Shown: positions 34,528-63,837 of the stretch, one piece after another
Position numbering within the stretch: the stretch's first letter is position 1
How the letters are laid out: every line of letters starts with the position of its first letter
NCBI GenBank assembly: GCA_035477115.1
Contig: DATIKW010000039.1
Span: 19,405-83,404, forward strand
From: Bacillota bacterium
GTDB taxonomy: Bacteria > Bacillota > Sulfobacillia > UBA995
DNA length: 64,000 nt
Direction of reading: 5' to 3'
Notes under the pieces: model-generated
What the model saw: the letters and a program-made list of their open reading frames with translations, nothing else
Told to the model about the DNA's origin: nothing
Database searches by the model: none
Program-made: the position numbers and the translations under genes

Positions 34528-34588
34528 TCTCCCTGCCTCCTTATGGTGCCCTGCGGGGCATGAGGGGCCCACTCCCTGATCGCGCTCT

Positions 34589-37838: not shown

Positions 37839-37854
37839 GCATCACACCTCCGCT

Positions 37855-38421: not shown

Positions 38422-38450
38422 GCTGCCATCCATCCTTTCGCCCGGAGAGG

Positions 38451-48660: not shown

Positions 48661-48664
48661 TGGT

Positions 48665-49837: not shown

Positions 49838-49872
49838 TTTCGCCTACCCCCACCGGTGGAACATGCTGACGG

Positions 49873-50799
49873 TCAAGAAGGGCGGGGTAACAGCCCCGCC
49901 TCCTCGACGATGCGCGGGACCATCTCCTCCCACATGATGGCCATGATGTGCACGCCGGCGACGCCGGGGATCCGCCGCAGTTCCTGGATGGCTTCCACGG
50001 CGATCTTCACCCCTTCCTCCGGCTGTTTCTTCCGCTCGACCCCTTTCATTCGGGCCAGCAGGGGTTCCGGCACGACCATGCCCGGGACGGTGCTCATGTG
50101 GCGGAGGGCGCCGAAGGACTTGGCGGGGCAGATGCCTCCCAGGATGTAAGTCTTCCGGTCGAGGCCCGCCTCGCGGACCATCTCCATCCACCGGGCGAAC
50201 CGCGGCAGGTCGAAGATGGCCTGGGTCTGGATGAAGCGGGCTCCCGCCGCCACCTTCTTGGCCAGCCGGCGAACGCGGAAAGCGAACGGCTCGGCGAACG
50301 GGTTCTCCGCCGCCCCCACGAAGAAACGAGGCCGGTGCTCGGCGGCGATGGCCTCCCCGTTCTGAAAGACCCCGGGATCCCCGAGGTCCCGAGCCATCTT
50401 CACGAGCTGCACCGAATCCAGGTCAAAGACGTTACGGGCCGCCGCGTGATTGCCGAAGGACTGATGGTCGCCGGTGAGGCACAGGAGATTGCGGGCGCCC
50501 AGGCTGTATGCTCCGAGGAGGTCGCTCTGCATGGCGATCCGGTTGCGGTCGCGGCAAGTCATCTGGATGATCGGCTCGCCCCCGGCCGCCAGGACATGGA
50601 CGGCGGCGGCGATGCTGGACAGGCGGACGATGGCCGTCTGGTTGTCGGTGAGGTTCTGCCCGTCGGTCACGCCCTTGAGCAATGCGGTGTGATGGCGGAT
50701 GCCCTCGGCCTCCGCTCCCTGGGGCGGCCCCACTTCCCCGGTGACGGCGAAGTGTCCCTGCTCCAGCAGACGCTCCAGCCTGCTCCGCTCGGCGCTCAT
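49873..50799 (-). CDS. metF: 5,10-methylenetetrahydrofolate reductase, acetogen-type catalytic subunit
   Basis: MSAERSRLERLLEQGHFAVTGEVGPP...TCRDRNRIAMQSDLLGA..., an MTHFR TIM-barrel. Start trimmed to the ATG at 50799 behind GGGAGGA; overlaps the metV stop. Confidence 0.85.
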   Translation of the reverse strand: MSAERSRLERLLEQGHFAVTGEVGPPQGAEAEGIRHHTALLKGVTDGQNLTDNQTAIVRLSSIAAAVHVLAAGGEPIIQMTCRDRNRIAMQSDLLGAYSLGARNLLCLTGDHQSFGNHAAARNVFDLDSVQLVKMARDLGDPGVFQNGEAIAAEHRPRFFVGAAENPFAEPFAFRVRRLAKKVAAGARFIQTQAIFDLPRFARWMEMVREAGLDRKTYILGGICPAKSFGALRHMSTVPGMVVPEPLLARMKGVERKKQPEEGVKIAVEAIQELRRIPGVAGVHIMAIMWEEMVPRIVEEAGLLPRPS

Positions 50800-51452
50800 A
50801 GGGCGACGTCCTCCCTGACCAGCTTGCGCGGGCCGCCGTCCCTGGCCCGGGACCAGTCCTTGGCCGGCAGCACCACGTCGAGGAGATCGAGGCGGCCGAG
50901 TCCCTCCAGTCGATCGTGTATCTTCTGCCAGGCGCACTCGATCGCCTCGTCAATCTCGCATTTGCCTTGCTGGGAGCCGCCGCAAGGCCCATTGAGCAGG
51001 CTCTTGGAACAACGGATGATCGGGCAGATCCCCCCGGTCAAGTGGAGCACGCAGTCGCCGCAGAAACCGCACCGCTCCTCCCACACGCCGGGCTGGCGGG
51101 CGCCGCCGCCGAAGCGGGTGTCCACCGCCGGGAACACCCAGGTGTGCGGGTAGCGTTCGGCCAGGAACTGCGCCCCCACGCCGCAGGCCATCGATATCAG
51201 ACAGTCGGCTTCCCCGGCCAGGGCGTCCAGGGCTTCCAGGAACTCCCCGTCGCACTGCCGGGTCAGCACGATGGTGCCCAGCTCGAGGTCGGGGCGTGCC
51301 AGGAGGAGGAGATCCCGCAGCAAAGCGACTTCCTTCTCACCGCCGGCATGGCAGACGGTGACGCATTCCGAGCAGCCGGCGATCACCGCCCGGCGGCGCC
51401 CCGCCAGGTTCTCCAGGATGGCGGGCAGGGGTTTGCGCTCGCAGACGATCAA
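50796..51452 (-). CDS. metV: MetV (zinc-ribbon/Cys-rich MTHFR-associated subunit)
   Basis: Cys-rich 218-aa protein (CSECVTVCHAGG...CGFCGDCVLHLTGGICPIIRCSKSLLNGPCGG...). Sits immediately upstream of metF, as in the Moorella hdr-mvhD-metVF cluster. Confidence 0.75.
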   Translation of the reverse strand: MIVCERKPLPAILENLAGRRRAVIAGCSECVTVCHAGGEKEVALLRDLLLLARPDLELGTIVLTRQCDGEFLEALDALAGEADCLISMACGVGAQFLAERYPHTWVFPAVDTRFGGGARQPGVWEERCGFCGDCVLHLTGGICPIIRCSKSLLNGPCGGSQQGKCEIDEAIECAWQKIHDRLEGLGRLDLLDVVLPAKDWSRARDGGPRKLVREDVAL

Positions 51453-51474
51453 CGCTTTCCCTCCTCCGAGCCTG

Positions 51475-52311
51475 TCAGTATTCGGCCGGCATCTGCCGGA
51501 GTTGCTCGTAGCTGAAGACCGGGCCGTCCTGGCAGACGTAGCGGGAGCCGATGTTGCACCGCCCGCACTTGCCGATGCCGCACTTCATGCGCATCTCCAG
51601 GGTGGTAATGACCTGGTCCGGGGTGAAGCCCAGTTTTTCGAGATCCTGGAGCACGAACTTGATCATGACCGGCGGCCCGCAGGTGACGGTGACGGCGTTT
51701 TCCGGCCGGGGCGCCAGCTCCCGGAGCACCTGGGGCACGAAGCCGACGCGGCCCTGCCAGGAAGCATCGCCCCGGTCCACCGTTACCTCGAGGGCGAGGT
51801 CGTCCCGCTGCCGCCACCGCTCGAGTTCCCACTTGAAGACCAGATCGCCGGGGCTGCGCGCCCCGTAGATGATGCTGACCGCGCCATACCGGTCCCGGTT
51901 GGCCGGGTCCAGCACGAAGGTGATCAGCGAGCGGAGGGGGGCCAGGCCGATGCCGCCGGCGATGAACACCACATCCTTGCCTTCCATCTCCCGGTAGGGG
52001 AAGTGGTTGCCGTAGGGGCCCCGGATCCCGAGATAATCTCCCGGCCGGGCGTGATGCATGGCCGTGGTCATCACCCCGGCCCGCTTCACGGCGAATTCCA
52101 GGTAACCTTCCTGGGTCGGCGACGAGGTGATGGATATGGGAGCCTCGCCGACCCCAATCACCGATACCTCGGCGAACTGGCCCGGCTCGTACCGGAATCC
52201 ATCCCGCACCTCCGGTTCGGCGAAGGCGACGCGGAAGGTCTTGACGTCCTGGGAAGCGGTCTCGGGGATGACCTCCTGGATGACGGCCAGGTGAGGCAGG
52301 TACGGATTCAA
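51475..52311 (-). CDS. FlxA/HydG-like NAD(P)H:FAD oxidoreductase subunit with C-terminal 2Fe-2S (sulfhydrogenase gamma / NfnA-like)
   Basis: FNR-like FAD/NAD-binding fold (FIAGGIGLAPLRSL) and a C-terminal CGIGKCGRCNIG cluster motif. Start trimmed to the TTG at 52311, immediately after the upstream stop and 7 nt after AAGGGGG. Confidence 0.75.
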   Translation of the reverse strand: MNPYLPHLAVIQEVIPETASQDVKTFRVAFAEPEVRDGFRYEPGQFAEVSVIGVGEAPISITSSPTQEGYLEFAVKRAGVMTTAMHHARPGDYLGIRGPYGNHFPYREMEGKDVVFIAGGIGLAPLRSLITFVLDPANRDRYGAVSIIYGARSPGDLVFKWELERWRQRDDLALEVTVDRGDASWQGRVGFVPQVLRELAPRPENAVTVTCGPPVMIKFVLQDLEKLGFTPDQVITTLEMRMKCGIGKCGRCNIGSRYVCQDGPVFSYEQLRQMPAEY

Positions 52312-53333
52312 GCTCGCACCCCCTTGAGCTGGTCGAGGACCGAGCGGAGGTCCACGTTGGCCGGACAAATCTCCACGCAGCGGCCGCAGCCGACGCAGGC
52401 CGGGCGGCCCCGGCGCTCCGGGTAATAGCAGAACTTGTGCATCAGCCGCTGGCGCATGCGCTCCTTCCCGGTGGTGCGCGGGTTATGGCCGGAAGCGTGG
52501 AGGGTGAAGGCCGGGAACATGCACGAGTCCCAGCGCCGCCAGCGCCGGCCGTCCTCGTCGCCCACGTCGAAACAGTGGCAGGTAGGACACAGATAAGTGC
52601 ACGCGGCACAGCCCAGGCAGCGTTCGTGCAGCCGATCCCATAGCGCGTGCTCGAAACCCCGGGCCAGCGTCGCCTGAAGGTCGACGGGGGGCGAGCCCGC
52701 CAGTCGTTCCCGGGCGCGGGCCGCGACGGCCTCCGCCGCCGCCTGCTGCTCCGGCCGGGCGGGCGGGAGCCCCAGCGGCTCCGTCCAGGCCCGACCCCGC
52801 TCGGTCAGGGGGCGCACCAGGTAGCCGCCGTCCACGGGCACCAGCAACACGTCCAGGCCTTCCTCGCCCAGGGGGTCGCCGCCCGCCGCCGGGCAGAAGC
52901 AGGCCGGGCCGGGCCGGTCGCACCCCAGCCCCACCAGGGTGGCCGCTTGCCGCCGGCCCGCCCAAAGGCCATCGACATGCGGGGGTTCCTCGAACACCGG
53001 ATCGAGCAAGGCCAGCGCCCGGGCGTCGCACGGCCTCACCCCGAAGACCACCATGGGCTGGCCGGAGGGTTCGGCCGGTTGCAGCCGGGGGACGCCGTCC
53101 ACCGTCGCGTAACCGAACAACACCTCGGCGCGGGGGAAGAACACTTCCTTGAGCGTGCGGCGGGTGGGACCGGCTTCCCGGTCGAGACACAGTCCGGGGC
53201 GGTAAGGGATGAAGCCCGAATCCTCGCCCCGTCCCGCCGCCACCCAGGTCGGGCCGCGCTCGGCGGAAGCCGCCAGGACCGCAGGCAGCTGGTCGCGAGT
53301 CAGGAAGACCGCCATGGCAGGCCTCTCCTTCAT
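52308..53333 (-). CDS. FlxB/HydB-like 4Fe-4S iron-sulfur subunit (sulfhydrogenase beta / AsrA-like)
   Basis: CFCPAAGG, CLGCAACTYLCPTCHC and CVGCGRCVEICPANVDL cluster motifs. Start trimmed to the ATG at 53333, which overlaps the upstream stop (ATGA) behind GGGAGGAG. Confidence 0.7.
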   Translation of the reverse strand: MKERPAMAVFLTRDQLPAVLAASAERGPTWVAAGRGEDSGFIPYRPGLCLDREAGPTRRTLKEVFFPRAEVLFGYATVDGVPRLQPAEPSGQPMVVFGVRPCDARALALLDPVFEEPPHVDGLWAGRRQAATLVGLGCDRPGPACFCPAAGGDPLGEEGLDVLLVPVDGGYLVRPLTERGRAWTEPLGLPPARPEQQAAAEAVAARARERLAGSPPVDLQATLARGFEHALWDRLHERCLGCAACTYLCPTCHCFDVGDEDGRRWRRWDSCMFPAFTLHASGHNPRTTGKERMRQRLMHKFCYYPERRGRPACVGCGRCVEICPANVDLRSVLDQLKGVRA

Positions 53334-54268
53334 AGGATGAACTCCTCCCGGTCGTCCGGTCGGAAACTGCCGACCAGGGGGCGCGCCTCCGGGTCGACTC
53401 CCGGGCGGTGGTCGAAGCGTTCGGCGGCCTCCCGCTCCAGCGCCAGGTGGAGGTGACGCAGATCGACGCCCACCGGGCACGCACGGGCGCAGGCGCCGCA
53501 GTCGACGCACCGGCCGGCCAGGTGCATGGCCCGGACGAGATGGAATAGCATCGCCTCCGACGGGTCGGCGGTCGGCCCCAGCAGGGCCGGGGCGGTACGG
53601 TCGGCGAAGCACTCCGCGCAGACGCACATGGGGCATGCCTGGCGGCAAGCATAGCAGGCGATGCACCGTTCGGCCGCCTGCCGGAACTCCTCCCGGCGCT
53701 GCTCGGGCGAAAGGGCGGTCCGCGCGTCGAGCCGTGCGAAGCGGTCGCCTTCGGGAGGGGCGGGCGCCTCGGGCGCCACCCAGTATATCCCGGGATCAGG
53801 CAGCCGGCACCCCTGGCACGCCGGGTCCCGCACTTCCACCCAGGGAAACTCCTCCTGCCAACCGTCCCCCACCACGACCAGGCGGTCGCCGGCCAGGCGA
53901 CCCTCGCGGATCACGCGGTCGGCCAGGCGGGAGGCGAGGGCGCGCCGGGAGATCATGCCCGAACACGGCAGGCCGATGGCCAGCACCCGGTCGCGGGCAA
54001 TCCGATTTTCCCGCACCTGTTCCACCAGCGTCCGGGCTTCGCAGGGCCGGGCGGCCAGCGCCACCCGCTCTTCCTTGAGGCGCCCGAGATATCCGGACAG
54101 GTTATGGTCGCAAGTGGGATCATACACCAGCCGCTCGGCATCCCCCGGCTCCCTGGCGAACAGGGGCGTGGTCCGCAAGGGCAAGGTCCCCCGCTCCCAG
54201 CCCAGCACGAGTTGAACCGTGCCCTCCGCCAGCAGTCGGGCCGCCGTTTCCCGCAGGTTCGCCGTCAA
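53330..54268 (-). CDS. FlxC-like 4Fe-4S iron-sulfur subunit
   Basis: Track ORF 53330..55030 trimmed to the TTG at 54268, which overlaps the mvhD stop (TTGA). C-terminal CIACYACRQACPMCVCAEC and CVDCGACARACPVGVDL ferredoxin motifs. Confidence 0.6.
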   Translation of the reverse strand: MTANLRETAARLLAEGTVQLVLGWERGTLPLRTTPLFAREPGDAERLVYDPTCDHNLSGYLGRLKEERVALAARPCEARTLVEQVRENRIARDRVLAIGLPCSGMISRRALASRLADRVIREGRLAGDRLVVVGDGWQEEFPWVEVRDPACQGCRLPDPGIYWVAPEAPAPPEGDRFARLDARTALSPEQRREEFRQAAERCIACYACRQACPMCVCAECFADRTAPALLGPTADPSEAMLFHLVRAMHLAGRCVDCGACARACPVGVDLRHLHLALEREAAERFDHRPGVDPEARPLVGSFRPDDREEFIL

Positions 54269-54711
54269 GGACAGGATGCTCGCCCCGCTTTCGACAGGAA
54301 TCCCGCCGGCCCCAGCGCCTTCACGTCGCCGACGACCTTGCGGATGACATCGGCGAACTTCTGGCCCTCGGCCGCCGAGACCCAGGAGAATTGCACCCGC
54401 TGTTCCTCCATCCCCACCTGTTCCAGGAGCCGCTTGAGCAAGGCGAACTTGCGCCGCGCCACCAGGTTGCCCGCCAGGTAGTGGCAATCTCCGGGATGAC
54501 ACCCCGAGACCAGCACGCCATCCGCCCCTCGCTGCAAGGCTTTCAGGATGTAGATGGGGTTGACCGCTCCGGAACACGGTACGCGCACCACCCGGACATT
54601 GGGCGGGTACTGCAGGCGGGATATGCCCGCCAGGTCGGCCCCGGCGTAGCTGCACCAGTGGCACAGGAAGGCGACGATCTTCGGTTCCCAGGTCGCACTC
54701 GCCGCATTCAT
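54265..54711 (-). CDS. mvhD: MvhD/FlxD-like hydrogenase iron-sulfur (2Fe-2S) subunit
   Basis: KIVAFLCHWCSYAGADLAG...VVRVPCSGAVNPIYILKALQRGADGVLVSGCHPGDCHYLAGN, the canonical MvhD motif set. ATG at 54711 overlaps the hdrL stop (ATGA). Confidence 0.8.
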   Translation of the reverse strand: MNAASATWEPKIVAFLCHWCSYAGADLAGISRLQYPPNVRVVRVPCSGAVNPIYILKALQRGADGVLVSGCHPGDCHYLAGNLVARRKFALLKRLLEQVGMEEQRVQFSWVSAAEGQKFADVIRKVVGDVKALGPAGFLSKAGRASCP

Positions 54712-57700
54712 AGGAGCGCCGCCACCTCCGCCAGGATCTGTTCCTCGGTGAAGCCGCGGAGCACGATCGCGCCACACCAGCAGGTGGCGGCGCAGGCCCC
54801 GCAGCCCTTGCACAGCGCCTTCTCCACCGCCGCCTTGCCCCGGGCCGGGTCGAGTTTGATGGCCGAGTACTGGCACACGCTCTCACAGGTGCGACAGCCG
54901 CCGCAGCGGGCCTCGCGAACCTCGGCCACGGCCCCTCCGGCCTCGATCGAGTCGCGGGCGATGACCGTAGCCGCCCGGCCCACCGCCGCCAGCGCCTGGG
55001 CCATGCTCTCGGACAAGGTCTTGGGAGCATGGGCCAGCCCCGCGACGAAGACCCCGTCGGTGGCGAAGTCGACCGGTCGCAGTTTGGCGTGGGCCTCGAG
55101 GAAGAAGCCGTCGGCGTTCAGCGGCACTTTGAGCGCCTGAGCTAGTTCGCGGGCGTCGGGCCGCGGGGCGATCCCCGAGGCCAGCACCACCAGGCCCGCC
55201 GGGATGCGCACCGGCATGCCCAGCAAGTCGTCGGTGACCGTCACTTCCCGCCGCCCGTCTTCGCCGGCGGCCACCCGGGGGGGATCATCCTCCGTGTAGC
55301 GATAGAAGATGACGCCCGCCTCCCGCGCCTCGCGGTACTGCTCTTCTTTCAGCCCATAGGTGCGGATGTCGCGGTGGATGACGTGGACCTCGCGCCGGGG
55401 ATCGAGCGCCTTCAACGCCAGGGCATTCTTCACCATGTGCGAGCAACACACCCGGCTGCAGTACGGCCGTTCGGGAGTACGCGACCCCGCGCAGCCGATC
55501 ATGACGATATCGCCCTCCGGCACCCGTCCCCCGGCCAGCGCTTCTTCCAGTTCGAGTTGCGTGATCACCCGGGGGTCAGTGCCGTAGCCGGTATCGGAGG
55601 GCACGGCCGGGAGGGCGCCGGTCGCGACCACCACCACCCCGTGGCGCACGGCGACCTCACCCTCCGGCGTGGCCAGGAGGGTCTCGAAGTTGCCCACAAA
55701 GCCTTCGATGTTGCGGACACGGGATCCGGTGTGCACGGTCACCAGCGGGTGGGTCTTGACCGCCTCGATGGTCCGGGCCACCAGGGCGGGCACATCCTCG
55801 CCCTCCAGCGTCCGGGTCAGCCGGCGGGCCTGCCCTCCCAGCTCGACCTCGCGCTCCACGAGGCCTACCGGGTAACCCTGCCGGGCGAAGGCGAGGGTCG
55901 CGGTCAAGCCGGCCATGCCGCCCCCGATCACCAGCGCGGCCCGCGTCACCGGGACAGGCACCCGGTACAGCGGTTCCAGGTGGCGGGCCTTGGCCACCGC
56001 CATCGCCAACAGGTCGCGGGATTTGGCCGTGGCGGCGTCGGGATCGTGCATGTGCACCCAGGAACACTGGTCGCGGATGTTGGCCATCTCGAACAGGTAA
56101 GGGTTCAGGCCGCCCTCGCGGATGCTCTGCTGAAATAACGGCTCGTGGGTCCGCGGCGAGCAGGAAGCCACGACCACCCGATTGAGGTCGTGCTCCTCGA
56201 TGAGCTGCTTGATGCGGTCTTGCGTGTCTTGCGAGCAGGTGTACAGGTTGTCCTCGACATGCACCACGTACGGCAGACCGCGCGCAAAGTCGGCCACTTC
56301 CTTGACCCGGACGACGCCGCCGATATTGATGCCGCAGTGGCACACGAACACGCCGATCCGGGGCGGGCGGTTGGCCACGGCCCGCTCGAGGGGGTACTCC
56401 TTGTGCCGGACGAGTTCGCCGCGGCTGGAGGCGAGCACCGTCCCCGCTTCCGCGGCGGCGGCGCTGGCCTCCACCACCGTCTCGGGTATGTCCTTGGGGG
56501 CGGCGAAGGGGCCGGCCACGAGGATGCCGGGACGGGAAGTGCAAGTCGGCTTCCCGGAGGGGGTGCGGGGGAAACCGTGCCGGTCGGTGCTGATCCCCAG
56601 CCGCTCGACCAGTTCGACCATGGCCGGTTCCGGCCGCATGCCCACCGACAGCACCACGAGATCGAAGTCCTCCCGGGCCGGCCGGCCGTCTTCCCCGGCA
56701 TAATGCACGGTGAGGTCCCCCGGGGCGCCGCCGGCTTCTACCGCCTCCACCCGGCTGCGTACCAGGCGCACCCCGTACTCCCGCTGGGCGCGGTTCAGGT
56801 AGTGCTCGAAATCCTTGCCGTAGGCGCGCATATCCATGTAGAAGATGCTGATCGCCAGTTCCTCGGCCGAGTGCTCTTTGGCGATGACCGCCTCTTTCAG
56901 GGCGTACATGCAGCACACGGAGGAGCAGTATCCCTCGCCGTGCCGGAGGTCCCGCGAGCCGATGCATTGCAGGAAGGCGATGCGCCGCGGGACCTTGCGG
57001 TCCGACGGCCGCACCACATGCCCGTCGTAGGGCCCGGAGGCCGACAGGATCCGCTCGAACTCCATGCTGGTGACGACATTGGGGTGGCGCCCGTAGCCGA
57101 GCGGTACGAGGTCCTCCGGGGCGGTGGTGGCGAAGCCCGGACACAGGATGACCGCCCCTACCTTCAACTCGACCTCTTCGGGCGCCATGTCGTGGACGAT
57201 GGCGCGAGCCTGGCATACCCGCTCGCACTCCCGGCACTCGGCGCAGACGCCGCAGTCCAGGCAGCGCCCAGCCTCGGCCATCGCCGCCTCCTGGCTCAGC
57301 CCGAGTTCCACTTCCCGAAAGTCGCCTCGGCGGGCTACGGGATCGAGTTCCGGCATGGCCGCGCGCGGCGCCCGTGCCTCACCCCACGGCACCGGCCCCA
57401 CGGCCGGGGCCGGGACGGGCCGAGCGGCGATCGGGATCTCTCCGTCCAGGTGGCGGCGGATGGAGGCGGCGGCCCTGCGGCCGGCGGCGATGGCTTCGAC
57501 GGCCGTGGCCGGACCGGTCACCGCGTCGCCGCCGGCGAACACACCCGGGCGGGCGGTGGCGAGCGTCTCCGGGTCGGCCGCCAGGTTGCCCCACCGGTCG
57601 GTCATCCCCGGCGGGGCGAAGGCGGTGTCCGGCGTCTGACCGATGGCGACGATCACCTGGTCCGCCTCGAGGGTGAAGTCGGAGCCGGGCACGGGCACCG

Positions 57701-59111
57701 GCCGGCGCCGGCCCGAGGCATCGGCCTCGCCTAGCTGCATGCGGAGGCAGCGCAGGCCCTGCGCCTGACCTTCGCCCAGCACGGCGGCAGGCGCGGTGAG
57801 GAACCGGAACTCGATCCCTTCCTCCTCGGCGGCCGCCACCTCGTGGGCTGCGGCCGGCATCTCCCCCCGGGACCGGCGGTACACCACGGTGACGCTGCGG
57901 GCGCCCAGGCGAAGGCTGCTGCGGGCGGCGTCGATGGCGACGTTGCCGCCGCCGATCACCAGCACCTGCCGGCCCACGGTCACCGGCTCGCCCAGGTTGA
58001 CCTGCCGCAGGAACTCCACCCCGGATACCACGCCCGGGACATCCTCGCCGGGCACGCCCAGCTTCTGATCCCGGTGGGCCCCGACCGCCAGGAATACCGC
58101 CTGGTAGCCGCCGGCGGCCAGATCGTCCAGGGTGAAGTCGCGGCCCAGAGCTGTCCCGGTGCGGATCTCCACCCCCAGGCGGGCGATCTGATCGATCTCC
58201 GCCCGCAGGATGTCCCGCGGCAAGCGGTATTCGGGGATGCCCACGGTCAACATCCCGCCGGCTACCGGCAAGGCCTCGAACACGGTCACGGGGAAGCCGT
58301 CGAGGGCCAGGTAATGGGCACAGGTCAGTCCCGCGGGGCCGGAGCCCACCACCGCCACCCGTTCCCGGCGCGGCGCGGAACATTCGGGCAAGGCGATTTC
58401 GCCGGCATGCTCGAGTTCATAGTCGGCAATCATCCGCTTCAGCGGGCGGATGGCCACCGGTTCGTCGAGTAGCCCGCGGCGGCATGCCGCTTCGCAGGGG
58501 TGGTGGCAGACCCGGCCGCATACGGCGGGGAAGGGGTTATCGCGCTTGACCAGAGTCACGGCTTCCTGGAACTTGCCGGCGGCGATCAGGGCGACATACC
58601 CCTGGGCATGCACCCCCGCCGGGCAAGACACCTGGCACAGGGGCCGGTCGGCCTTGTCGATGGCGAAGGCATTGGGGTAAGCCTGGGGGAAGGGCCGGAA
58701 AATGGCCTTGCGCAGGTTGAGCCCGCCCTCATACTCGTTGGGCAGCCGGACCGGGCACTCTTTCTCGCAGTCGCCGCAGCCGGTGCAACGCGCGAGATCG
58801 ATGTACCGGGGCCGGCGCCGCACCCGAACGGTGAAGTTGCCCGGCTCGCCGGCGATGTCCAGCACTTCCGAACCGGTGAGCGTCTCGATGTTCAGGTGGC
58901 GGCCGCACTCCACCAGCTTCGGCGACAGGATGCACATGGCGCAGTCATTGGTCGGGAAGGTCTTGTCCAGCCGGGCCATGGTCCCGCCGATCGAGGGCGA
59001 CTTCTCTACCAGGTAAACGTAGAAACCGGACTCGGCCAGGTCCAGGGCGGCCTGCATCCCGGCGATGCCGCCTCCTACCACCAGGGCCGCGCCGGTCACG
59101 CCGCCGCTCAT
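54708..59111 (-). CDS. giant HdrA-family fusion (HdrL-like): HdrA module + GltD/NfnB-like NAD(P)H oxidoreductase module + ferredoxin + second HdrA module, 1467 aa
   Basis: Module 1: GGGIAGMQAALDL (FAD), CTGCGDCEKECP, CQVSCPAGVHA, CGRVCHHPCEAAC. Module 2: VAVVGSGPAGLTCAHYL ... VIGGGNVAIDAA (GltD-like). Ferredoxin CLDCGVCAECRECERVC. Module 3: VFVCHCGINIGGVV, ALVIGGGMAGLTA, CAGSRTPERPYCSRVCC, C-terminal CGGCRTCESVC...CKGCGACAATC. Confidence 0.85.
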   Translation of the reverse strand: MSGGVTGAALVVGGGIAGMQAALDLAESGFYVYLVEKSPSIGGTMARLDKTFPTNDCAMCILSPKLVECGRHLNIETLTGSEVLDIAGEPGNFTVRVRRRPRYIDLARCTGCGDCEKECPVRLPNEYEGGLNLRKAIFRPFPQAYPNAFAIDKADRPLCQVSCPAGVHAQGYVALIAAGKFQEAVTLVKRDNPFPAVCGRVCHHPCEAACRRGLLDEPVAIRPLKRMIADYELEHAGEIALPECSAPRRERVAVVGSGPAGLTCAHYLALDGFPVTVFEALPVAGGMLTVGIPEYRLPRDILRAEIDQIARLGVEIRTGTALGRDFTLDDLAAGGYQAVFLAVGAHRDQKLGVPGEDVPGVVSGVEFLRQVNLGEPVTVGRQVLVIGGGNVAIDAARSSLRLGARSVTVVYRRSRGEMPAAAHEVAAAEEEGIEFRFLTAPAAVLGEGQAQGLRCLRMQLGEADASGRRRPVPVPGSDFTLEADQVIVAIGQTPDTAFAPPGMTDRWGNLAADPETLATARPGVFAGGDAVTGPATAVEAIAAGRRAAASIRRHLDGEIPIAARPVPAPAVGPVPWGEARAPRAAMPELDPVARRGDFREVELGLSQEAAMAEAGRCLDCGVCAECRECERVCQARAIVHDMAPEEVELKVGAVILCPGFATTAPEDLVPLGYGRHPNVVTSMEFERILSASGPYDGHVVRPSDRKVPRRIAFLQCIGSRDLRHGEGYCSSVCCMYALKEAVIAKEHSAEELAISIFYMDMRAYGKDFEHYLNRAQREYGVRLVRSRVEAVEAGGAPGDLTVHYAGEDGRPAREDFDLVVLSVGMRPEPAMVELVERLGISTDRHGFPRTPSGKPTCTSRPGILVAGPFAAPKDIPETVVEASAAAAEAGTVLASSRGELVRHKEYPLERAVANRPPRIGVFVCHCGINIGGVVRVKEVADFARGLPYVVHVEDNLYTCSQDTQDRIKQLIEEHDLNRVVVASCSPRTHEPLFQQSIREGGLNPYLFEMANIRDQCSWVHMHDPDAATAKSRDLLAMAVAKARHLEPLYRVPVPVTRAALVIGGGMAGLTATLAFARQGYPVGLVEREVELGGQARRLTRTLEGEDVPALVARTIEAVKTHPLVTVHTGSRVRNIEGFVGNFETLLATPEGEVAVRHGVVVVATGALPAVPSDTGYGTDPRVITQLELEEALAGGRVPEGDIVMIGCAGSRTPERPYCSRVCCSHMVKNALALKALDPRREVHVIHRDIRTYGLKEEQYREAREAGVIFYRYTEDDPPRVAAGEDGRREVTVTDDLLGMPVRIPAGLVVLASGIAPRPDARELAQALKVPLNADGFFLEAHAKLRPVDFATDGVFVAGLAHAPKTLSESMAQALAAVGRAATVIARDSIEAGGAVAEVREARCGGCRTCESVCQYSAIKLDPARGKAAVEKALCKGCGACAATCWCGAIVLRGFTEEQILAEVAALL

Positions 59112-59599
59112 GTCGTCTCCCCCACCTCGGCGAACAGTCGCTTGAGGTTGCCCGGATCGGGAGGGCCGGCGGCCGCTTTATCCCGCGCCAGGGCGCGCGC
59201 CGCTCCCAGCCTCAGTTGCTGAGCCAGATCGTCCATGGCTTTCAGCCGGGCGGGGAAAGACGGGTGCACGTAGCCGCGTTCGACGGCCAGTTCCCGGAGC
59301 ACGCCCATGACATCGGTGAACTTCACATCCTGAGGGCAGCGGGCATAGCAGGTAAAGCACAGCGTACACAACCAGATCAGGTCGGAGGTCAGCACGTCCT
59401 CCTCCAGTCCCAGGAGCACCATGCGGATGATGCGCCGGGGATTGTAGGCGCCGTCCACTTCCGCCACCGGACAGCCGGCCGTGCACACCCCGCAGCCGAA
59501 ACAAGCCTTGATGGCCTGGCCCCCGGGGCGCGCGGCCACCTCGTACTTGAACCTGGGGCTGACCAGCCGGGCGGGACTCGCGCTTGCCGCCGCCTTCAT
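59108..59599 (-). CDS. hdrC: HdrC-like 2x[4Fe-4S] subunit
   Basis: CFGCGVCTAGCP and CTLCFTCYARCP motifs. Trimmed from track ORF 59108..59965 to the ATG at 59599 behind GGGGGAGGGG; overlaps the upstream stop. Confidence 0.8.
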   Translation of the reverse strand: MKAAASASPARLVSPRFKYEVAARPGGQAIKACFGCGVCTAGCPVAEVDGAYNPRRIIRMVLLGLEEDVLTSDLIWLCTLCFTCYARCPQDVKFTDVMGVLRELAVERGYVHPSFPARLKAMDDLAQQLRLGAARALARDKAAAGPPDPGNLKRLFAEVGETT

Positions 59600-59985
59600 G
59601 ACCCCTCCCCCTTCCCGATGGCGTCCACCTGCCGCCGCATCTCCCGCGCCGCCCGAGCCAGGCGGGCCGCGCCCGCGGGTGAGGCGAACTCCAGCCGCAC
59701 CCTGGCGGGGTCCACCCCGGCTTCCTTCAGCAATCCGCGCAGGTATTCGATCCGGCGGCCGGCCACCAGGTTCCCCTGCAGGAACTCGCACGCCTCTTCG
59801 AAACACCCTACTACCATCACGCCGGCATAGCCCCGGGTGAGGGCGCCCGTCACATGCAGGACGTCGACCCTGCCCGAGCAGGGCACGGGGGAGAGCGTCC
59901 AGCCCGGCGGCCAGAAGCCGCCGGCCTCGGCCTCCTCGACGGCCCGCAAGGCGGAACGTTCGCATACGAAAGCCAGGAGCTTCAT
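59596..59985 (-). CDS. MvhD-like iron-sulfur subunit, divergent second copy
   Basis: AFVCERS...PVPCSGRVDVLHV...VVGCFEEACEFLQGN, a variant MvhD motif (GCxxxxCxF instead of GCHPGDCHY). 129 aa. Confidence 0.7.
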   Translation of the reverse strand: MKLLAFVCERSALRAVEEAEAGGFWPPGWTLSPVPCSGRVDVLHVTGALTRGYAGVMVVGCFEEACEFLQGNLVAGRRIEYLRGLLKEAGVDPARVRLEFASPAGAARLARAAREMRRQVDAIGKGEGS

Positions 59986-61157
59986 GCCGTCACCCCCAGC
60001 CGGCCGTATATCGCTTCATCGGTGGAGGACTGGATGGTGATGGCCAGCGCCGGACAGGCGGCGGCACACACCCCGCAGCCGCGGCAGGCGGCCGGGTCGG
60101 GGACGGCCACCACCAGGATCCCGGCCGGATCGGGTTGGATGGCGATCGCCCGGTGCGGGCACAGCCGTACGCAGGTGAGACATCGGGCACAACGCTGTCC
60201 GTCCACCCGCGCTCGGGCTTCCTCCGCCGGCTGCCGGAGGAAGGCGGCGACCGCGGCGGCGGCCGCCCGACCGTCGCCCAGGCACCCCTCCAGGTCGAGG
60301 TCGGCCCGGAGACTGCCGGCGAGGAAGATGCCGGGCCGAGGACTGCGGCTCCCAAGGCGCACATTGGCCCGGGCGGGCCCGAGGTCGATGCCTTCCCCCC
60401 GCGGCGCCTCCCGCTCGTCGATGGCCGCCAGGTCGAGGGTGACGCCCACCGGCAGTCCGTCAACCCCTGCCTCGAGGAAGAATGAGTCGCCGTCGTCTTG
60501 GAGCTTCAGGGGGTGCGCCCCTTGCTTGAAGAAGGTAACGCCCAGGTCGCGCGCCACCCGGTACCGGGCATCCAGACCGTCGCCGGCCACCCGCAGGTCC
60601 CGGCCGAACCAGGTGACCTCCGCCGCGAAATCGCGTCGCGCGGCAATGGCCAGGTTGAGGGCGGCCGCATGCTGGCGGCGGCTATCGGCGGCCGAGCCGT
60701 CGAGGAAGAGGCCGATGCGGCGGCCGCGCAGGCGGGCGATGGCGGTTTCCGGCCGGCCCAGCAGCTCGGCCAGCATCGACAAGCCGAGCACGCGAGGGCC
60801 CGGCTTCAAGCCGTGCGCCTCCGGCACGGGTATCCGCTCCACCCCCATGGCCAGGACCACGGCACGGGCCTCGCCCGGCCTGCCGTCCAAGTCTAGCTGG
60901 AACCGGCCCGGTCCGCCCCGGACGGCGCGCAGCCGGGTGCCGGGCAGCACCTCGACAGGGCTGAGATCTCCCTCCAGTTCGGCCAGCAGGCGGCGGTCAT
61001 CCGCCGGCGACCCGAGGTACCCGGGGAGGCTGCGCAGGGTGCCGCCGAGGGTGGATTTCGCCTCCGCCAGGGCGACCTGATGGCCCAGGCGGGCCAACGC
61101 GCCGGCGCAGGCCAGGCCGCTGGCGCCGCCGCCCGTGACGAGGATATCGGCCTTCAT
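59982..61157 (-). CDS. HdrA-like FAD oxidoreductase with C-terminal 2x[4Fe-4S] ferredoxin (half-HdrA, C-type)
   Basis: ADILVTGGGASGLACAGALA FAD motif; C-terminal CARCLTCVRLCPHRAI and CRGCGVCAAACPALAI. Start trimmed to the ATG at 61157 behind GGGAGGTG. Confidence 0.7.
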   Translation of the reverse strand: MKADILVTGGGASGLACAGALARLGHQVALAEAKSTLGGTLRSLPGYLGSPADDRRLLAELEGDLSPVEVLPGTRLRAVRGGPGRFQLDLDGRPGEARAVVLAMGVERIPVPEAHGLKPGPRVLGLSMLAELLGRPETAIARLRGRRIGLFLDGSAADSRRQHAAALNLAIAARRDFAAEVTWFGRDLRVAGDGLDARYRVARDLGVTFFKQGAHPLKLQDDGDSFFLEAGVDGLPVGVTLDLAAIDEREAPRGEGIDLGPARANVRLGSRSPRPGIFLAGSLRADLDLEGCLGDGRAAAAAVAAFLRQPAEEARARVDGQRCARCLTCVRLCPHRAIAIQPDPAGILVVAVPDPAACRGCGVCAAACPALAITIQSSTDEAIYGRLGVTA

Positions 61158-62170
61158 CCGACCTTCACCTCCCAGCGAGCGGCCGCGCCGGCCGCAGCCG
61201 CGGTCGCGGCAGCCCGACCGTGAGCAATGCTGTCGGCCAGGGTGCGCGGTTTCTGGCAGCAACCGGCCAGGAACACCCCCGGCCGGGACGATAGCCAGTT
61301 GGCGCCGGGTTGGCCGGCGAAGAAACCGGCGGCATCCAGGTTGATCCCCAGCGCCCGGGCCAGGGCCGGGGCGTCGGGGCGCGGCCAGATGCCTACGGAC
61401 AGGACCACGCCGTCGAATGCCTCGCGGCTCACGGCCGCCTGGCGGACATCGTCGTACACCAGCGTGAGCCGGCCGTCCGCTTGGCCGACCCGGGCGGGTA
61501 TCCCCTGGACCAGCCGGATCTTCTCCCGCGCCTGCTCATACAGGTTGTGGGTGATGCGCCCGGCGGTCTGCAGGTCATTATAGAAAATGCTGATTTTGAG
61601 GTCAGGGCGATCGACCAGCAGGCCGAGCGCCAAGCGCAACGCGTAAGGACAACACACCTCCGAGCAGTAGTCCCGGCCTCGCGCCGGGCAGCGCGAGCCC
61701 ACACACTGCACGAAAGCGAGTTGCCCCCCGGTCGGCGGCTCGCCCCTCCGGACCGCCTGCTCCAGGTCGGTGCCGGTCAGGACGCCGGGCAGCCGCCCAT
61801 AGCCCAGGTCGGGCCATTCGGCGGCGGGGGCCGGCGTCATCCCCGAAGCCACGATGATCGCCTCGGCCTCCAGGACGCCGTCGCTCAACTCGACGCGAAA
61901 TGCGCCCGGCCGACCCTCCAAGGCCTGGAGGGTCGTGCCCGTCCGCACGGTGGCGGCGGATGCGGCGAGTTCCTCCCGGAGATCGGACACGAGGCACACG
62001 CCGCAGTGCAGGCAGCGGTCGGTGGCCTTGCAGGCGTAAGCAATCGCCTGGCCGCCGAGCCGTGGTTCGCGCTCGACCAGGATGACCTCACAGCCCAGTT
62101 GGCCGGCGGCGACGGCGGCAGCCATCCCCGCCACGCCTCCTCCTATCACCAGTATCCTCTCAGCAACCAA
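61154..62170 (-). CDS. HdrA-like FAD oxidoreductase (half-HdrA, N-type)
   Basis: ILVIGGGVAGMAAAVAAGQLG, CLHCGVC and CVGSRCPARGRDYCSEVCC (the HdrA CSxVCC-type motif). Confidence 0.7.
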   Translation of the reverse strand: MVAERILVIGGGVAGMAAAVAAGQLGCEVILVEREPRLGGQAIAYACKATDRCLHCGVCLVSDLREELAASAATVRTGTTLQALEGRPGAFRVELSDGVLEAEAIIVASGMTPAPAAEWPDLGYGRLPGVLTGTDLEQAVRRGEPPTGGQLAFVQCVGSRCPARGRDYCSEVCCPYALRLALGLLVDRPDLKISIFYNDLQTAGRITHNLYEQAREKIRLVQGIPARVGQADGRLTLVYDDVRQAAVSREAFDGVVLSVGIWPRPDAPALARALGINLDAAGFFAGQPGANWLSSRPGVFLAGCCQKPRTLADSIAHGRAAATAAAAGAAARWEVKVG

Positions 62171-62200
62171 GGCGCGGCCCCCTTCCGCGGCAATTCCCGT

Positions 62201-62968
62201 TCAATCCGAGGTACGGCCGTCCGTCAAGCCCGCCCGAGCGGCGACGGCCCGGACCGCCTGCAGGGCGGCCGAATCCGCCGGCAGCCGGGCCAGCGGTTCC
62301 CCATGGAGGTCGAGGTCGGCCACGTCCCGGTCGTCGGGGATGAAACCGCCAACTTCTAGACCGGTCGCCGCGATGGCATCCTCCAGCGGACGCCGGTCGA
62401 TCACCCGGTTGACCACCAGCCACACCCGACCCGGCTTCAACCCGATCTCGTCGACCAGTTCCCGGATGCGGCCGGCCGTGCGCAAGCCCCGGACGGTGGC
62501 GTCGCTCAGCACGAAGGTCATGTCCATGTCCTGCGCCACGCGGCGCGACAGATGCTCCATGCCCGCCTCGTTGTCTACGACCAGGAAGTCGTAGTCGCGA
62601 GCCAGCGCCCCCAGGTGGTTGCGGATGAGGTCATTGGGGAAGCAGTAGCAGCCGGGCCCTTCGGGCGTGCCCATGCTCAGGAGGTCCAGCCGCGGCGTCT
62701 CCACCAGCACCGAGCGGAGCCGGTATTCGATGAGCTGGCTCTTGGGCATGCCGGCCGGGGGAGGTCCGGGAGCCTTCACCTCCTCCAGCACGTCGGCCAC
62801 CGTCCGGGGGACGGCGATCCCCAGCGCCTCGTGCAAGTTGGAGTTGGGGTCGGCGTCCACGGCCAGGATGGTGCCCCCGGTCCCTTCCTGCAGGGTCCGG
62901 ATGAGCATGGCGGCGAAGCTCGTCTTGCCGGTGCCGCCCTTGCCCGCGATCGCTACCCGTACGGGCAT
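62201..62968 (-). CDS. cooC: CooC-type Ni-insertion ATPase (CO dehydrogenase maturation factor), copy 1
   Basis: MPVRVAIAGKGGTGKTS deviant Walker A, and the CYCFPN Cys motif typical of CooC/AcsF. Start trimmed to the ATG at 62968 behind GGGGAGGGA. Confidence 0.85.
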   Translation of the reverse strand: MPVRVAIAGKGGTGKTSFAAMLIRTLQEGTGGTILAVDADPNSNLHEALGIAVPRTVADVLEEVKAPGPPPAGMPKSQLIEYRLRSVLVETPRLDLLSMGTPEGPGCYCFPNDLIRNHLGALARDYDFLVVDNEAGMEHLSRRVAQDMDMTFVLSDATVRGLRTAGRIRELVDEIGLKPGRVWLVVNRVIDRRPLEDAIAATGLEVGGFIPDDRDVADLDLHGEPLARLPADSAALQAVRAVAARAGLTDGRTSD

Positions 62969-62970
62969 CG

Positions 62971-63756
62971 TTACTCCCTCCCCGGGGTCTCTCCCATCAT
63001 CTCCAGCACCCGCCGGCCCACTTCCTGCACGTCGGCCCACAGTTCGGGAGCGGCGACCGGCGGCGGCCCTCCCGGCCCGGCGATGGACCGTTCCAGCACC
63101 GCTTCATCGTGGCGGAGATGACCGAGGACCTCGATGCCGTCCAGGCGTGACTCCAGGAAAGCCCGTTCGGCGGCGTTGCGGAGCTTGTTGCCTACGACCG
63201 CTACCCGCGGGATGCCCAGGTCGGCCGCAAGGCGGGCGATGGTCCCGGCGGACTTCACGCCGGCCGGGCTGGGCTCACTGACGATGATCAGGAGGTCAAC
63301 GCCGCGGGCGGTACCCCGGGTGAAGCCCTCAATCCCCGCCCCCATGTCCATCACCACCTGGTCCTGTCTCCCCAGGAACAACGCGGTGACCACGGCTCGC
63401 AAGAAACTGGCCTCGCTGCAATAACATTCGCTGCCCCCCGGCTTCACCGCCCCCATGCGCAGCAGCCGGATGTTGCCGTGCCGCACCGAATAGCGGTCGA
63501 GCAGGTCGTCGACCCGGGGATTCAACACGAAGAACAGGCCGCTGCCCGCCCGGTCCTTGACGACCTCCTGCATCTCGATCAGCGGGACCAGACCATCGAG
63601 CGACGCGGGTGGGAAACCGAGGGCGAGACCCAGGCTGGCATCGGGGTCGGCGTCGACCGCATACACCTGATAGCCCTGACCGGCGAGGAACAAACACAAT
63701 CCCGCAGCCAGGGTGGTCTTCCCCGAACCGCCTTTTCCGCCGATGGCCAGTTTCAT
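62971..63756 (-). CDS. cooC: CooC-type Ni-insertion ATPase, copy 2
   Basis: MKLAIGGKGGSGKTT, and the ECYCSEASF Cys motif. Confidence 0.85.
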   Translation of the reverse strand: MKLAIGGKGGSGKTTLAAGLCLFLAGQGYQVYAVDADPDASLGLALGFPPASLDGLVPLIEMQEVVKDRAGSGLFFVLNPRVDDLLDRYSVRHGNIRLLRMGAVKPGGSECYCSEASFLRAVVTALFLGRQDQVVMDMGAGIEGFTRGTARGVDLLIIVSEPSPAGVKSAGTIARLAADLGIPRVAVVGNKLRNAAERAFLESRLDGIEVLGHLRHDEAVLERSIAGPGGPPPVAAPELWADVQEVGRRVLEMMGETPGRE

Positions 63757-63837
63757 CGCATGGCGATGCCCCTTATCCGGTCATCGTTCACTATCAGGGT
63801 ACCATGAAGTGAGGCTTCCAGGCCGGAAGGCCGAACA

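Follow-up and report, generated by a model that had tools for sequence, protein, structure and literature searches.

The name HdrL was given to the 'heterodisulfide reductase/glutamate synthase fusion proteins' of Desulfobacterium autotrophicum, where mvhD is the next gene (PMC2702500), and HdrL has been seen by proteomics together with HdrABC in Syntrophobacter fumaroxidans (PMC5947623). An HdrL/MvhD/Fdh cluster lies beside Wood-Ljungdahl genes in Desulfurivibrio dismutans (PMC12142623), and in the D. gibsoniae genome paper the acs operon is drawn, uninterpreted, with 'hyd', 'Fe-S' and metF genes (PMC4148979). An NfnB-like insert and a complementary fused HdrA have been described in anaerobic methanotrophic (ANME) archaea and Moorella (PMC9012536) and typed as II and III (PMC12054007). 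The HdrL family and its two key modifications are already in the literature. Here we describe an hdrL gene in a 64,000-nucleotide stretch of DNA from a Bacillota bacterium (contig DATIKW010000039.1; the whole stretch is referred to as the window), which the original prediction, made from the letters, had described as an HdrL-like HdrA-GltD-HdrA fusion. The HdrL label fits, the product being a large HdrA-type protein with a GltD-like NAD(P)H module and mvhD being the next gene. Our main reading, to which we give a probability of roughly 60%, is that a bifurcating complex linked to MetFV has this protein as its core, the chain being an asymmetric pseudo-dimer of HdrA that carries an NADP(H) arm. 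The gene is located as follows.

54708..59111, minus strand: hdrL open reading frame, 1467 codons plus stop, ATG to TGA.

The open reading frame and the fusion are genuine and not a product of assembly. Since the G+C content of the window DNA is about 69%, long spurious open reading frames are common, and several of 300-560 codons overlap the hdrL region in other frames. Over the whole hdrL frame, G+C at the first, second and third codon positions is 0.73, 0.51 and 0.88, and third-position G+C stays at 0.80-0.94 in one phase in every 300-nt block of 54700-59199, the phase shifting only outside the ends of the frame. Neither the frame plot nor codon-position G+C gave any sign of a frameshift or a spliced reading frame in hdrL. 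A Shine-Dalgarno-like GGGGGAG site lies 5' of the ATG, which overlaps the stop codon of the preceding gene (ATGA). The single frame of 1467 codons thus has the exact coordinates originally predicted for it, and its coding signal is uniform. We searched 5.8 billion proteins for homologues and considered the 120 best matches, with BLASTP values for 118 of them. All 120 are 1465-1667 aa long, and the 118 cover 98-100% of the query at 54-91% identity; their sources are many independent JGI, ENA, NCBI and Logan assemblies, and one full-length homologue is encoded by the complete chromosome (4.26 Mb) of Desulfoscipio sp. XC116. The uniform frame signal and these homologues rule out an artefact that joined separate hdrA, gltD and hdrA genes, against which the original prediction had cautioned. 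The probability that mis-assembly or a sequencing error merged such genes is negligible, because independent projects, some with complete genomes, have yielded over 100 full-length homologues of equal length, and because the GltD-like part interrupts an HdrA domain whose two halves fold together in a structure model (see below), an arrangement that end-to-end joining of genes cannot yield.

Domain searches supported the module assignments: Pfam, NCBIfam and PDB matches confirmed that HdrA-type and GltD/NfnB-type modules are present in one polypeptide. Pfam placed Fer4_20 at residues 156-235, Pyr_redox_2 at residues 251-544 and Fer4_9/Fer4_7 in the C-terminal domain. The NCBIfam HdrA/HdrA2 models matched HdrL in four stretches, with scores below each equivalog cut-off (955 bits against 1100 for NF040770, 666 against 1400 for NF041778, and 634 against 1300 for NF041891). 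PDB chains of HdrA matched four separate stretches of HdrL (E ~1e-190), and those of NfnA, StnC, NfnB and GltD matched at E values of 1e-138 to 1e-68. When HdrA of M. thermolithotrophicus (5ODC) was used as the residue-level reference for the HdrA units, HdrL residues 4-153, 621-842, 916-1068 and 1285-1463 aligned with HdrA residues 141-290, 291-512, 3-155 and 466-646, respectively. The protein is built of the following parts.

58653..59111, minus strand: HdrA unit 1, first part, residues 1-153, with the FAD motif GxGxxG at 13-18, Cys57/Cys60 and the first CxxCxxCxxxCP at 109-119.
57252..58652, minus strand: NfnL/GltD-like insert, residues 154-620, 467 residues.
56397..57251, minus strand: HdrA unit 1, second part, residues 621-905, with C623/626/629/633, C716-x12-C729-x3-C733-C734 and E686/K739.
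55947..56375, minus strand: HdrA N-terminal domain, residues 913-1055, with VFVCHCGINIGG and C924, C926, C959, C984 and C1016.
54942..55946, minus strand: flavin domain of HdrA unit 2, residues 1056-1390, with GGGMAG at 1064-1069, C1207-x10-C1218-x3-C1222-C1223, K1228 and E1189.
54711..54941, minus strand: C-terminal 2x[4Fe-4S] ferredoxin domain, residues 1391-1467, matched by Pfam Fer4_9/Fer4_7 and aligned with 5ODC up to its residue 646.

The motifs quoted in the original prediction were all found, VFVCHCGINIGG at residues 921-932, CSRVCC at 1218-1223 and the two C-terminal CxxCxxCxxxC motifs at 1403-1444. The order HdrA-GltD-HdrA was not upheld, as the layout is that of an insertion. Residues 154-620 interrupt HdrA between 5ODC positions 290 and 291. 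The inserted ferredoxin domain has two Cys motifs, C109/112/115/119 and C623/626/629/633, and the insertion point separates them; the NfnL/GltD-like part is therefore situated within the inserted ferredoxin domain of unit 1. A linear layout was rejected on the strength of this alignment and of the HdrA core 8rwn_A, which superposes on the model across the insert.

In the 5ODC alignment, unit 1 lacks an N-terminal domain as well as a C-terminal ferredoxin domain, and unit 2 has the N-terminal, flavin and C-terminal 2x[4Fe-4S] domains and lacks the inserted ferredoxin domain. The two flavin domains are 31-39% identical by direct BLASTP, and both units retain GxGxxG and the proximal-cluster motif C-x(10-12)-C-x3-CC. 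Cys57/Cys60 of unit 1 correspond to Cys194/Cys197 of HdrA, and E686/K739 to E356/K409, the Lys/Glu pair of HdrA that contacts flavin N5 (PMC12054007, PMC6405883). Conservation was read from an alignment of the 118 full-length homologues. Cys57 and Cys60 are 100% conserved in unit 1. Neither this alignment nor the BLASTP of unit 1 against unit 2, where LDKTFPTNDCAMCIL in unit 1 stands opposite LTRTLEGEDVP-ALV in unit 2, showed a Cys197-type cysteine in the equivalent stretch of unit 2. All HdrL cluster motifs are invariant, with Cys as the ligand throughout, and K739 and E686 are 100% conserved, K1228 89% and E1189 94%.

In the solved complex, Cys197 of each HdrA protomer completes the N-terminal cluster of its partner (PMC9012536). 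The N-terminal, inserted and C-terminal Fe-S domains and the Cys197-type residue, which a canonical HdrA protomer carries as a set, each occur once per HdrL chain and are spread over its two units. The description of the second HdrA module as complete was thus not borne out, since this unit is devoid of the Cys197-type cysteine and of the inserted ferredoxin domain, and the first unit is incomplete too. It is the complementarity between the Cys197-type residue of one unit and the N-terminal domain of the other that leads us to read the chain as an asymmetric HdrA dimer: judged from its sequence, HdrL is a pseudo-heterodimer of complementary halves. From the motifs we predict three FAD sites (two of HdrA type and one in the insert) in place of the two flavin sites first proposed, one NAD(P)H site and about nine [4Fe-4S] clusters.

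We performed structure modelling with two constructs. A construct without the insert (residues 1-153 and 621-1467, 1000 aa, 61-sequence alignment) was predicted as one body with a mean predicted local distance difference test score (pLDDT) of 87.1 and a predicted template modelling score (pTM) of 0.89; its only notably uncertain loop, residues 51-57, lies beside Cys57/Cys60, and low confidence is expected there for a cluster-dependent loop. In Foldseek comparisons of single chains, full-length 5odc_A matched this model with a target template modelling (TM) score of 0.77 and a root-mean-square deviation (rmsd) of 3.9 A, and the HdrA core 8rwn_A with a target TM of 0.95, an rmsd of 1.8 A and 45% identity. 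The model of residues 1-915 (pLDDT 88.4, pTM 0.81) aligned with 8rwn_A at a TM of 0.93 over 896 columns, the insert being spanned as a gap, and its insert superposed on 9bov_A with an rmsd of 2.0 A at 48% identity; over all NfnA/StnC structures compared, the insert gave 42-48% identity and an rmsd of 2.0-4.3 A over aligned columns. The models support both the domain parsing and a rigid assembly.

The closest relatives of the insert are NfnA and StnC, ahead of NfnB/NfnL and GltD, as judged by E values: 5e-139 with NfnA of C. saccharolyticus NfnABC (9bov_A), 6e-136 with T. sibiricus NfnA (9n5u_A), 2e-122 with S. ovata StnC (8oh5_C), 2.5e-104 with T. maritima NfnB (4ylf_B), 2e-100 with P. furiosus NfnI-L and about 1e-70 with GltD. 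For about 475 residues the insert runs collinear with NfnA/StnC (insert query 3-477 with 9bov_A 101-575). Residues 6-43 of NfnB, ending RCLQC, align with the C-terminal end of the insert, residues 584-621, ending RCLDCG, which identifies the insert as a circular permutation of NfnB, the form seen in NfnA/StnC. It bears an FAD motif, GSGPAG, at 256-261, an NADPH motif, GGGNVA, at 387-392 followed by YRRSxxEMPA at 411-420, and seven invariant Fe-S ligands (C159, C163, C202, C206, C210, C617 and C620). The invariance of C617 and C620 follows from the permutation, which places cluster ligands at the C-terminal end of the insert. These seven cysteines serve the two clusters of the insert, the eighth ligand of which is probably a residue other than Cys; conservation of C198 reaches only 54%, and the position aligned with it in 9bov_A is not a Cys. 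The NCBIfam model PRK12771 'NAD(P)-binding protein' matched residues 154-666 with 568 bits, above its cut-off of 516, which suggests that the NfnL-like module and the second ferredoxin motif, which comes after it, correspond to an existing stand-alone architecture.

A392 of the GxGxxA motif is invariant and YRRSxxEMPA is 99% conserved. Since both are shared with the NADPH-using NfnB, NfnA and StnC sequences, the nucleotide bound by the insert is likely to be NADP(H); the two Arg of the YRRS motif presumably contact the 2'-phosphate of NADPH. In NfnABC, the FAD of the NfnL-like domain takes hydride from NADPH and sends single electrons via two clusters to a separate bifurcation site (PMC11829005).

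The possibility exists that two bifurcating flavins act in series in HdrL, the insert being NfnB-like and splitting NADPH electrons between a PyrK-like [2Fe-2S]/FAD partner and the Fe-S chain into HdrA. Arg296 of the insert is invariant and corresponds to NfnB Arg187, which stands at N5 of the bifurcating flavin in T. maritima (PMC6405883), a PyrK-fold FAD/[2Fe-2S] protein is encoded three genes downstream, and the idea has been put forward for the ANME-1 fusions by Chadwick et al. (PMC9012536). We nevertheless consider this unlikely, given that the insert is nearer to NfnA/StnC than to NfnB (5e-139 against 2.5e-104) and permuted relative to the latter, and that the NfnA/StnC flavin does not bifurcate (PMC11829005). 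In addition, the PyrK-like protein matched sulfhydrogenase gamma (9nez_C) at 6.8e-68 and NfnA (4ylf_A) at 1.5e-13, and together with its beta-like partner and MvhD it conforms to the Flx pattern. As a candidate NfnA/NfnS partner of the insert this protein was disfavoured, being sulfhydrogenase-gamma-like and travelling with a beta-like partner and MvhD. The NfnAB-like bifurcating core of the original prediction therefore found no specific support: the FAD of the proteins with which the insert is collinear is a plain NADPH entry (PMC11829005), and the sole PyrK-like neighbour is of the sulfhydrogenase-gamma/FlxA type and not of the NfnA/NfnS type.

Between 63756 and 49873 every gene lies on the minus strand. 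The neighbours of hdrL in this run are the following.

62971-63756 and 62201-62968, minus strand: two CooC/CbiA-type nickel-insertion ATPases in tandem, at the head of the run.
61154..62170, minus strand: small HdrA-like protein with a flavin domain only, 338 aa, with a CC cluster motif.
59982..61157, minus strand: small HdrA-like flavoprotein with a C-terminal 2x[4Fe-4S] domain, 391 aa.
59596..59985, minus strand: MvhD/FlpD-type protein 1, 129 aa (PF02662, 6.9e-28).
59108..59599, minus strand: HdrC-like 2x[4Fe-4S] protein without a CCG/HdrB domain, 163 aa; its stop overlaps the hdrL start (ATGA).
54265..54711, minus strand: MvhD/FlpD-type protein 2, 148 aa (PF02662, 6.3e-55); its start overlaps the hdrL stop (ATGA).
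53330..54268, minus strand: FlxC-like Fe-S protein, about 312 aa.
52308..53333, minus strand: sulfhydrogenase-beta/AsrA/FlxB-like Fe-S protein, 341 aa (PF17179; 9nez_B, 1.7e-40).
51475..52311, minus strand: sulfhydrogenase-gamma/FlxA-like protein with FAD, NAD(P)H and [2Fe-2S] sites, 278 aa from TTG 52311 (alternative start 52368).
50796..51452, minus strand: metV, 218 aa (PF12225, 2e-35).
49873..50799, minus strand: metF, 308 aa from ATG 50799 (PF02219, 5.4e-36), overlapping the metV stop.

Between the small hdrA-like gene and metF (49873-62170, minus strand), most neighbouring genes are joined by four-nt ATGA start/stop overlaps; the apparent TTG starts of flxC and flxA overlap the stop before them, and about 20 nt separate metV from flxA. 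The chained overlaps point to translational coupling and indicate that this run of about 12 kb is probably one translationally coupled operon; a consensus scan of 47500-64000 for promoters and terminators gave nothing above the expectation from shuffled sequence. The original prediction had put hdrL in one operon with metVF and cooC, and metV, metF and two cooC-type genes were indeed found on the same strand in the same run. The 163-aa HdrC-like protein matched the HdrC model TIGR03290 at 1.6e-28, under its cut-off. No HdrB/CCG protein (PF02754) was found among the 14 genes of the run, nor was a hidden HdrB/CCG domain detected in the HdrC-like gene or in the rest of the run. FlxABCD of Desulfovibrio is an NADH dehydrogenase module joined to Hdr through an MvhD-like subunit, and its FlxA and FlxB resemble the gamma and beta subunits of sulfhydrogenase. 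We take the trio after MvhD in the window to be the FlxABCD pattern, the measured likeness being limited to sulfhydrogenase beta/gamma.

Upstream of hdrL, at 59596-62170 (minus strand), lies a split HdrA-like system that consists of the 338-aa and 391-aa proteins with their own MvhD. The 338-aa protein has CxxCxxC near the Cys197 region, and the 391-aa FAD protein has a C-terminal 2x[4Fe-4S] domain only; these features are complementary, like those of a two-gene heterodimer. The window ends 244 nt upstream of the cooC pair, inside a co-oriented open reading frame (63838-64000) that weakly matched the gene before cooC in one related locus (L009), and directly 3' of metF, on the same strand, a 390-aa DAO-family FAD-dependent oxidoreductase is encoded at 48665-49837 (minus strand). 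Elsewhere in the window, 33739-39296 (minus strand) encodes fumarate hydratase, malic enzyme, succinyl-CoA ligase beta and alpha and a Germane (sporulation/germination) domain protein, which agrees with a spore-forming Firmicute as the source of the DNA, and the other very long open reading frame, at 26219-30460 (minus strand), encodes a 1413-aa S8 subtilase with CarboxypepD_reg and CARDB domains that is unrelated to hdrL.

We scanned one genome per GTDB species for relatives and examined the best 80 of 565 related stretches, about 40 of which contain a full-length hdrL. These came from Bacillota, Chloroflexota (Anaerolineae), Calditrichota (Calditrichales), Desulfobacterota (Syntrophales and others) and Nitrospirota (Nitrospiraceae), and also from WOR-3, Bacteroidales, Bathyarchaeia and Methanocellales metagenome-assembled genomes (MAGs). 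The family, which the original prediction had mentioned from sulfate reducers, is not confined to them and extends over several bacterial phyla and archaeal MAGs. The closest relative in this set, L001 (77%), is a deep-mine MAG labelled Symbiobacterium thermophilum, in which the gene order is that of the window.

Neighbourhoods were counted over 42 hdrL loci. The gene mvhD lies directly 3' of hdrL in about 30 of them, flxCBA-like genes follow hdrL in about 12, a homologue of the 338-aa HdrA-like protein is near hdrL in about 24, and an HdrC-like gene adjoins hdrL in most. In 10 of the 42 loci, belonging to several phyla, metVF is no more than 5 kb from hdrL, either downstream (L001, L002, L008, L009, L027) or upstream (L006, L007, L014, L019, L038). 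The HdrC-like neighbour is short and CCG-less in every metVF-linked locus where it was found, and the loci with such a CCG-less protein are the window, L001-L003, L006, L007, L014, L019 and L038. HdrCB proteins with CCG lie near hdrL in deltaproteobacterial and Chloroflexota (Anaerolineae/Chloroflexia) loci and in Desulfoscipio (L081), where hdrL is inside the acs operon, in the order cooC-acsA-acsB-acsC-cooC-acsD-acsE-hdrL-mvhD-flxCBA-hdrCB-...-metV-metF, then a second hdrL. This paralogue of Desulfoscipio sp. XC116 (L081 22602-24422; 1478 aa) stands directly after metF.

HdrL might instead be independent of MetFV, as a general NAD(P)H-linked Hdr-type oxidoreductase that acts on DsrC or another disulfide or balances NADH, NADPH and ferredoxin, and be co-regulated with metVF and nothing more. 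HdrL was first proposed as a link from NADH to sulfite reduction (PMC2702500), that of S. fumaroxidans was detected with HdrABC only under sulfate-reducing conditions (PMC5947623), and most of the HdrL loci examined have no metVF within 10 kb. On the other hand, neither an HdrB/CCG protein nor a dsr gene was found in the window operon, overlapping start and stop codons join most genes from hdrL to metF, and the linkage to metVF recurs in distant phyla in two gene orders, which argues for functional coupling in this subtype. For these reasons, we regard independence from MetFV as very unlikely here.

The main reading, an HdrL core linked to MetFV, was worked out on the pattern of canonical HdrA, in which electrons enter by the MvhD/C-terminal arm and have two exits, the proximal cluster towards HdrC/HdrB, and the N-terminal cluster with the inserted ferredoxin domain towards ferredoxin (PMC9012536). 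We infer the formation of the complex, the nucleotide at each site, the direction of electron flow and bifurcation itself along the following lines. Judged by its motifs, unit 1 supplies an FAD, the Cys197-type ligand, a proximal [4Fe-4S] cluster and the only inserted ferredoxin domain; from unit 2 come another FAD, another proximal [4Fe-4S] cluster and the sole N-terminal cluster and C-terminal ferredoxin domains. One chain can in this way build a full HdrA-type wiring with a single input arm, a single low-potential arm and at most two proximal clusters. The input arm would run from MvhD to the C-terminal domain of unit 2, and the low-potential arm from the N-terminal cluster, shared between unit 2 and Cys60 of unit 1, to the inserted ferredoxin domain of unit 1, which the NfnL-like FAD/NADPH module would cap, exchanging electrons with NADP(H) instead of, or besides, ferredoxin. 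A comparable structural prediction exists for archaeal type III HdrA, whose insert blocks the ferredoxin site and would bring in a nicotinamide nucleotide instead (PMC12054007). The high-potential arm would lead from a proximal cluster through the CCG-less HdrC-like protein to MetV/MetF, so that the high-potential partner would be methylene-/methyl-tetrahydrofolate (THF) and not a heterodisulfide.

MvhD and the FlxCBA-like proteins would form an NAD(P)H dehydrogenase that feeds the C-terminal ferredoxin arm. NAD(P)H would be oxidised at the Flx-like module, with the high-potential electron going to methylene-THF and the other to NADP+ at the insert. The most likely overall reaction would be 2 NADH + NADP+ + CH2-THF <-> 2 NAD+ + NADPH + CH3-THF, and it would be reversible. 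The potential of the folate couple is -200 mV, and those of NADH and NADPH are -320 mV under standard conditions and roughly -280 and -380 mV in vivo. On these textbook values, the reaction should lie near equilibrium and hence be reversible, and would suit the Wood-Ljungdahl pathway in either direction. Exergonic folate reduction would drive electrons uphill into the more reduced NADPH pool, and in the oxidative direction NADPH would help to pull methyl-THF oxidation to NADH. Put in its most specific form, the HdrL/MvhD/Flx-like/HdrC-like/MetFV set would be a ferredoxin-independent, three-hydride-site bifurcating methylene-THF reductase and NADH-to-NADPH transhydrogenase in which NADP+ replaces ferredoxin; we put this form forward tentatively, as a possibility that is more doubtful than not.

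It is also conceivable, if somewhat unlikely, that NADPH is the donor through the NfnL-like insert and that an HdrA flavin bifurcates to methylene-THF (via the HdrC-like protein and MetVF) and to ferredoxin elsewhere. The ferredoxin surface would then be provided by the C-terminal ferredoxin domains, MvhD or the second HdrA-like pair, and the Flx-like module would be an alternative entry or exit for NADH. In the closest solved relatives the NfnL-like domain is the NADPH input (PMC11829005), ferredoxin reduction has been proposed for the Moorella-type MetFV-Hdr coupling (PMC5736913, PMC10553843), and the operon has extra 2x[4Fe-4S] domains and a second MvhD. This arrangement would, however, need the arms to be reassigned, since output from canonical HdrA is by the inserted ferredoxin domain and input by the MvhD/C-terminal arm (PMC9012536). 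Moreover, the operon showed neither a gene for free ferredoxin nor an obvious domain for ferredoxin docking, and as two NAD(P)H modules are present, there is no need for a third soluble partner.

Several observations weigh against the reading of HdrL as the core of a MetFV-linked bifurcating complex. The composition of the putative complex was read from gene order, and NADH at the FlxA-like protein is an assumed nucleotide preference. NADP+ is not a classical low-potential acceptor, and coupling would need a physiological disequilibrium between NADH and NADPH. As Arg296 is conserved, the insert flavin may itself bifurcate, and the second HdrA-like pair with its own MvhD in the same operon could supply a ferredoxin site. 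CCG-bearing HdrCB-type proteins are found near hdrL in several deltaproteobacterial loci, and many HdrL loci have neither metVF nor flx genes, the partner reactions varying across the family. Finally, literature searches turned up no purified, assayed or experimentally solved HdrL and no characterised HdrL-MetFV complex, the mentions found being genomic, proteomic or in silico, in agreement with the description of HdrL as biochemically uncharacterised in the original prediction.

The energy coupling of methylene-THF reduction and methyl-THF oxidation is a long-standing gap in Wood-Ljungdahl bioenergetics, to which the identity of the second acceptor in the Moorella-type MetFV-Hdr complex also belongs. 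The operon type described here is a concrete candidate, as it has nucleotide sites on two arms of an HdrA-type core, no HdrB and an HdrC-like link towards MetFV. If the ferredoxin-independent enzyme exists and is run in reverse, it would offer acetate-oxidising Wood-Ljungdahl organisms a way past unfavourable methyl-THF oxidation. The protein encoded in the window has close family members by the hundreds, and its own value is modest; likewise modest is what the present analysis adds, namely the precise point of insertion, the permuted, NfnA/StnC-type nature of the inserted module, the reversal of the fusion order and the operon subtype with metVF, flx-like and CCG-less hdrC-like genes.

Compared by description, HdrL of D. 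autotrophicum HRM2 and of S. fumaroxidans (Sfum_0824) is likewise a large soluble HdrA-type protein with a GltD-like module, followed by mvhD (PMC2702500, PMC5947623), and a Syntrophobacteraceae MAG (L023) has a full-length homologue with 49% identity in the best segment and mvhD downstream. The loci of D. autotrophicum and S. fumaroxidans have dsr, fdh or hdrABC partners and some selenocysteine, whereas the window has metVF, flxCBA-like and CCG-less hdrC-like genes and all-Cys ligands.

NfnA/StnC of the Bfu family (9BOV, 9N5U, 8OH5) share with the insert the permuted NfnL-like order, the Cx3CP start and the RCLxCG end. They have a formate-dehydrogenase/NuoG-like domain and BfuB/BfuC (NuoF/NuoE-like) partners, which HdrL and its neighbours lack, the insert being grafted into HdrA. 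With NfnB/NfnL the insert shares the FAD and NADPH Rossmann domains, two [4Fe-4S] clusters and the Arg at flavin N5; NfnB/NfnL have the native order and a dedicated NfnA/NfnS partner, whereas the insert is permuted and its neighbour is sulfhydrogenase-gamma-like.

Desulfovibrio FlxABCD-HdrABC likewise places MvhD-type, two Fe-S and PyrK-fold FAD/NAD(P)H proteins beside an HdrA-type protein; in the window the order is reversed (D-C-B-A after hdrL), HdrB is absent, and HdrL is the HdrA partner. The MetFV-HdrABC-MvhD cluster of Moorella thermoacetica shares metV, metF, mvhD, an hdrC-like gene and a fused double hdrA in one cluster, and the Moorella complex is NADH-linked and thought to bifurcate (PMC5736913, PMC9012536). 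Unlike it, the window cluster has no HdrB/CCG protein and has an extra Flx-like module, an NADPH module in HdrA and the small HdrA-like pair with its own MvhD.

HdrA of the methanogen HdrABC-MvhAGD complex (5ODC, 8RVU, 7BKB) shares the four HdrA domains, the cluster motifs and the flavin Lys/Glu pair. It is a homodimer, whereas HdrL is one chain with single N-terminal, inserted and C-terminal Fe-S domains, an NADPH module on the ferredoxin arm and no HdrB nearby. Archaeal HdrA proteins (ANME-1 HdrA9-11 and HdrA3/4; 'type II', 'type III' and 'A9-TRX-C') share the NfnB/GltD-like insert of about 500 residues in the inserted ferredoxin domain (PMC9012536, PMC12054007); GxGxxG was reported for type III HdrA, and the HdrL insert has GxGxxA. 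The fused double HdrA proteins of ANME archaea and Moorella show the same complementarity of Cys197 and N-terminal domain (PMC9012536). In ANME HdrA3/4 and the Moorella fusions the unit with the N-terminal domain comes first, whereas in HdrL the Cys197 unit comes first and the N-terminal domain stands between the flavin domains. Unlike the archaeal forms, HdrL combines the insert and the double-HdrA fusion in one chain.

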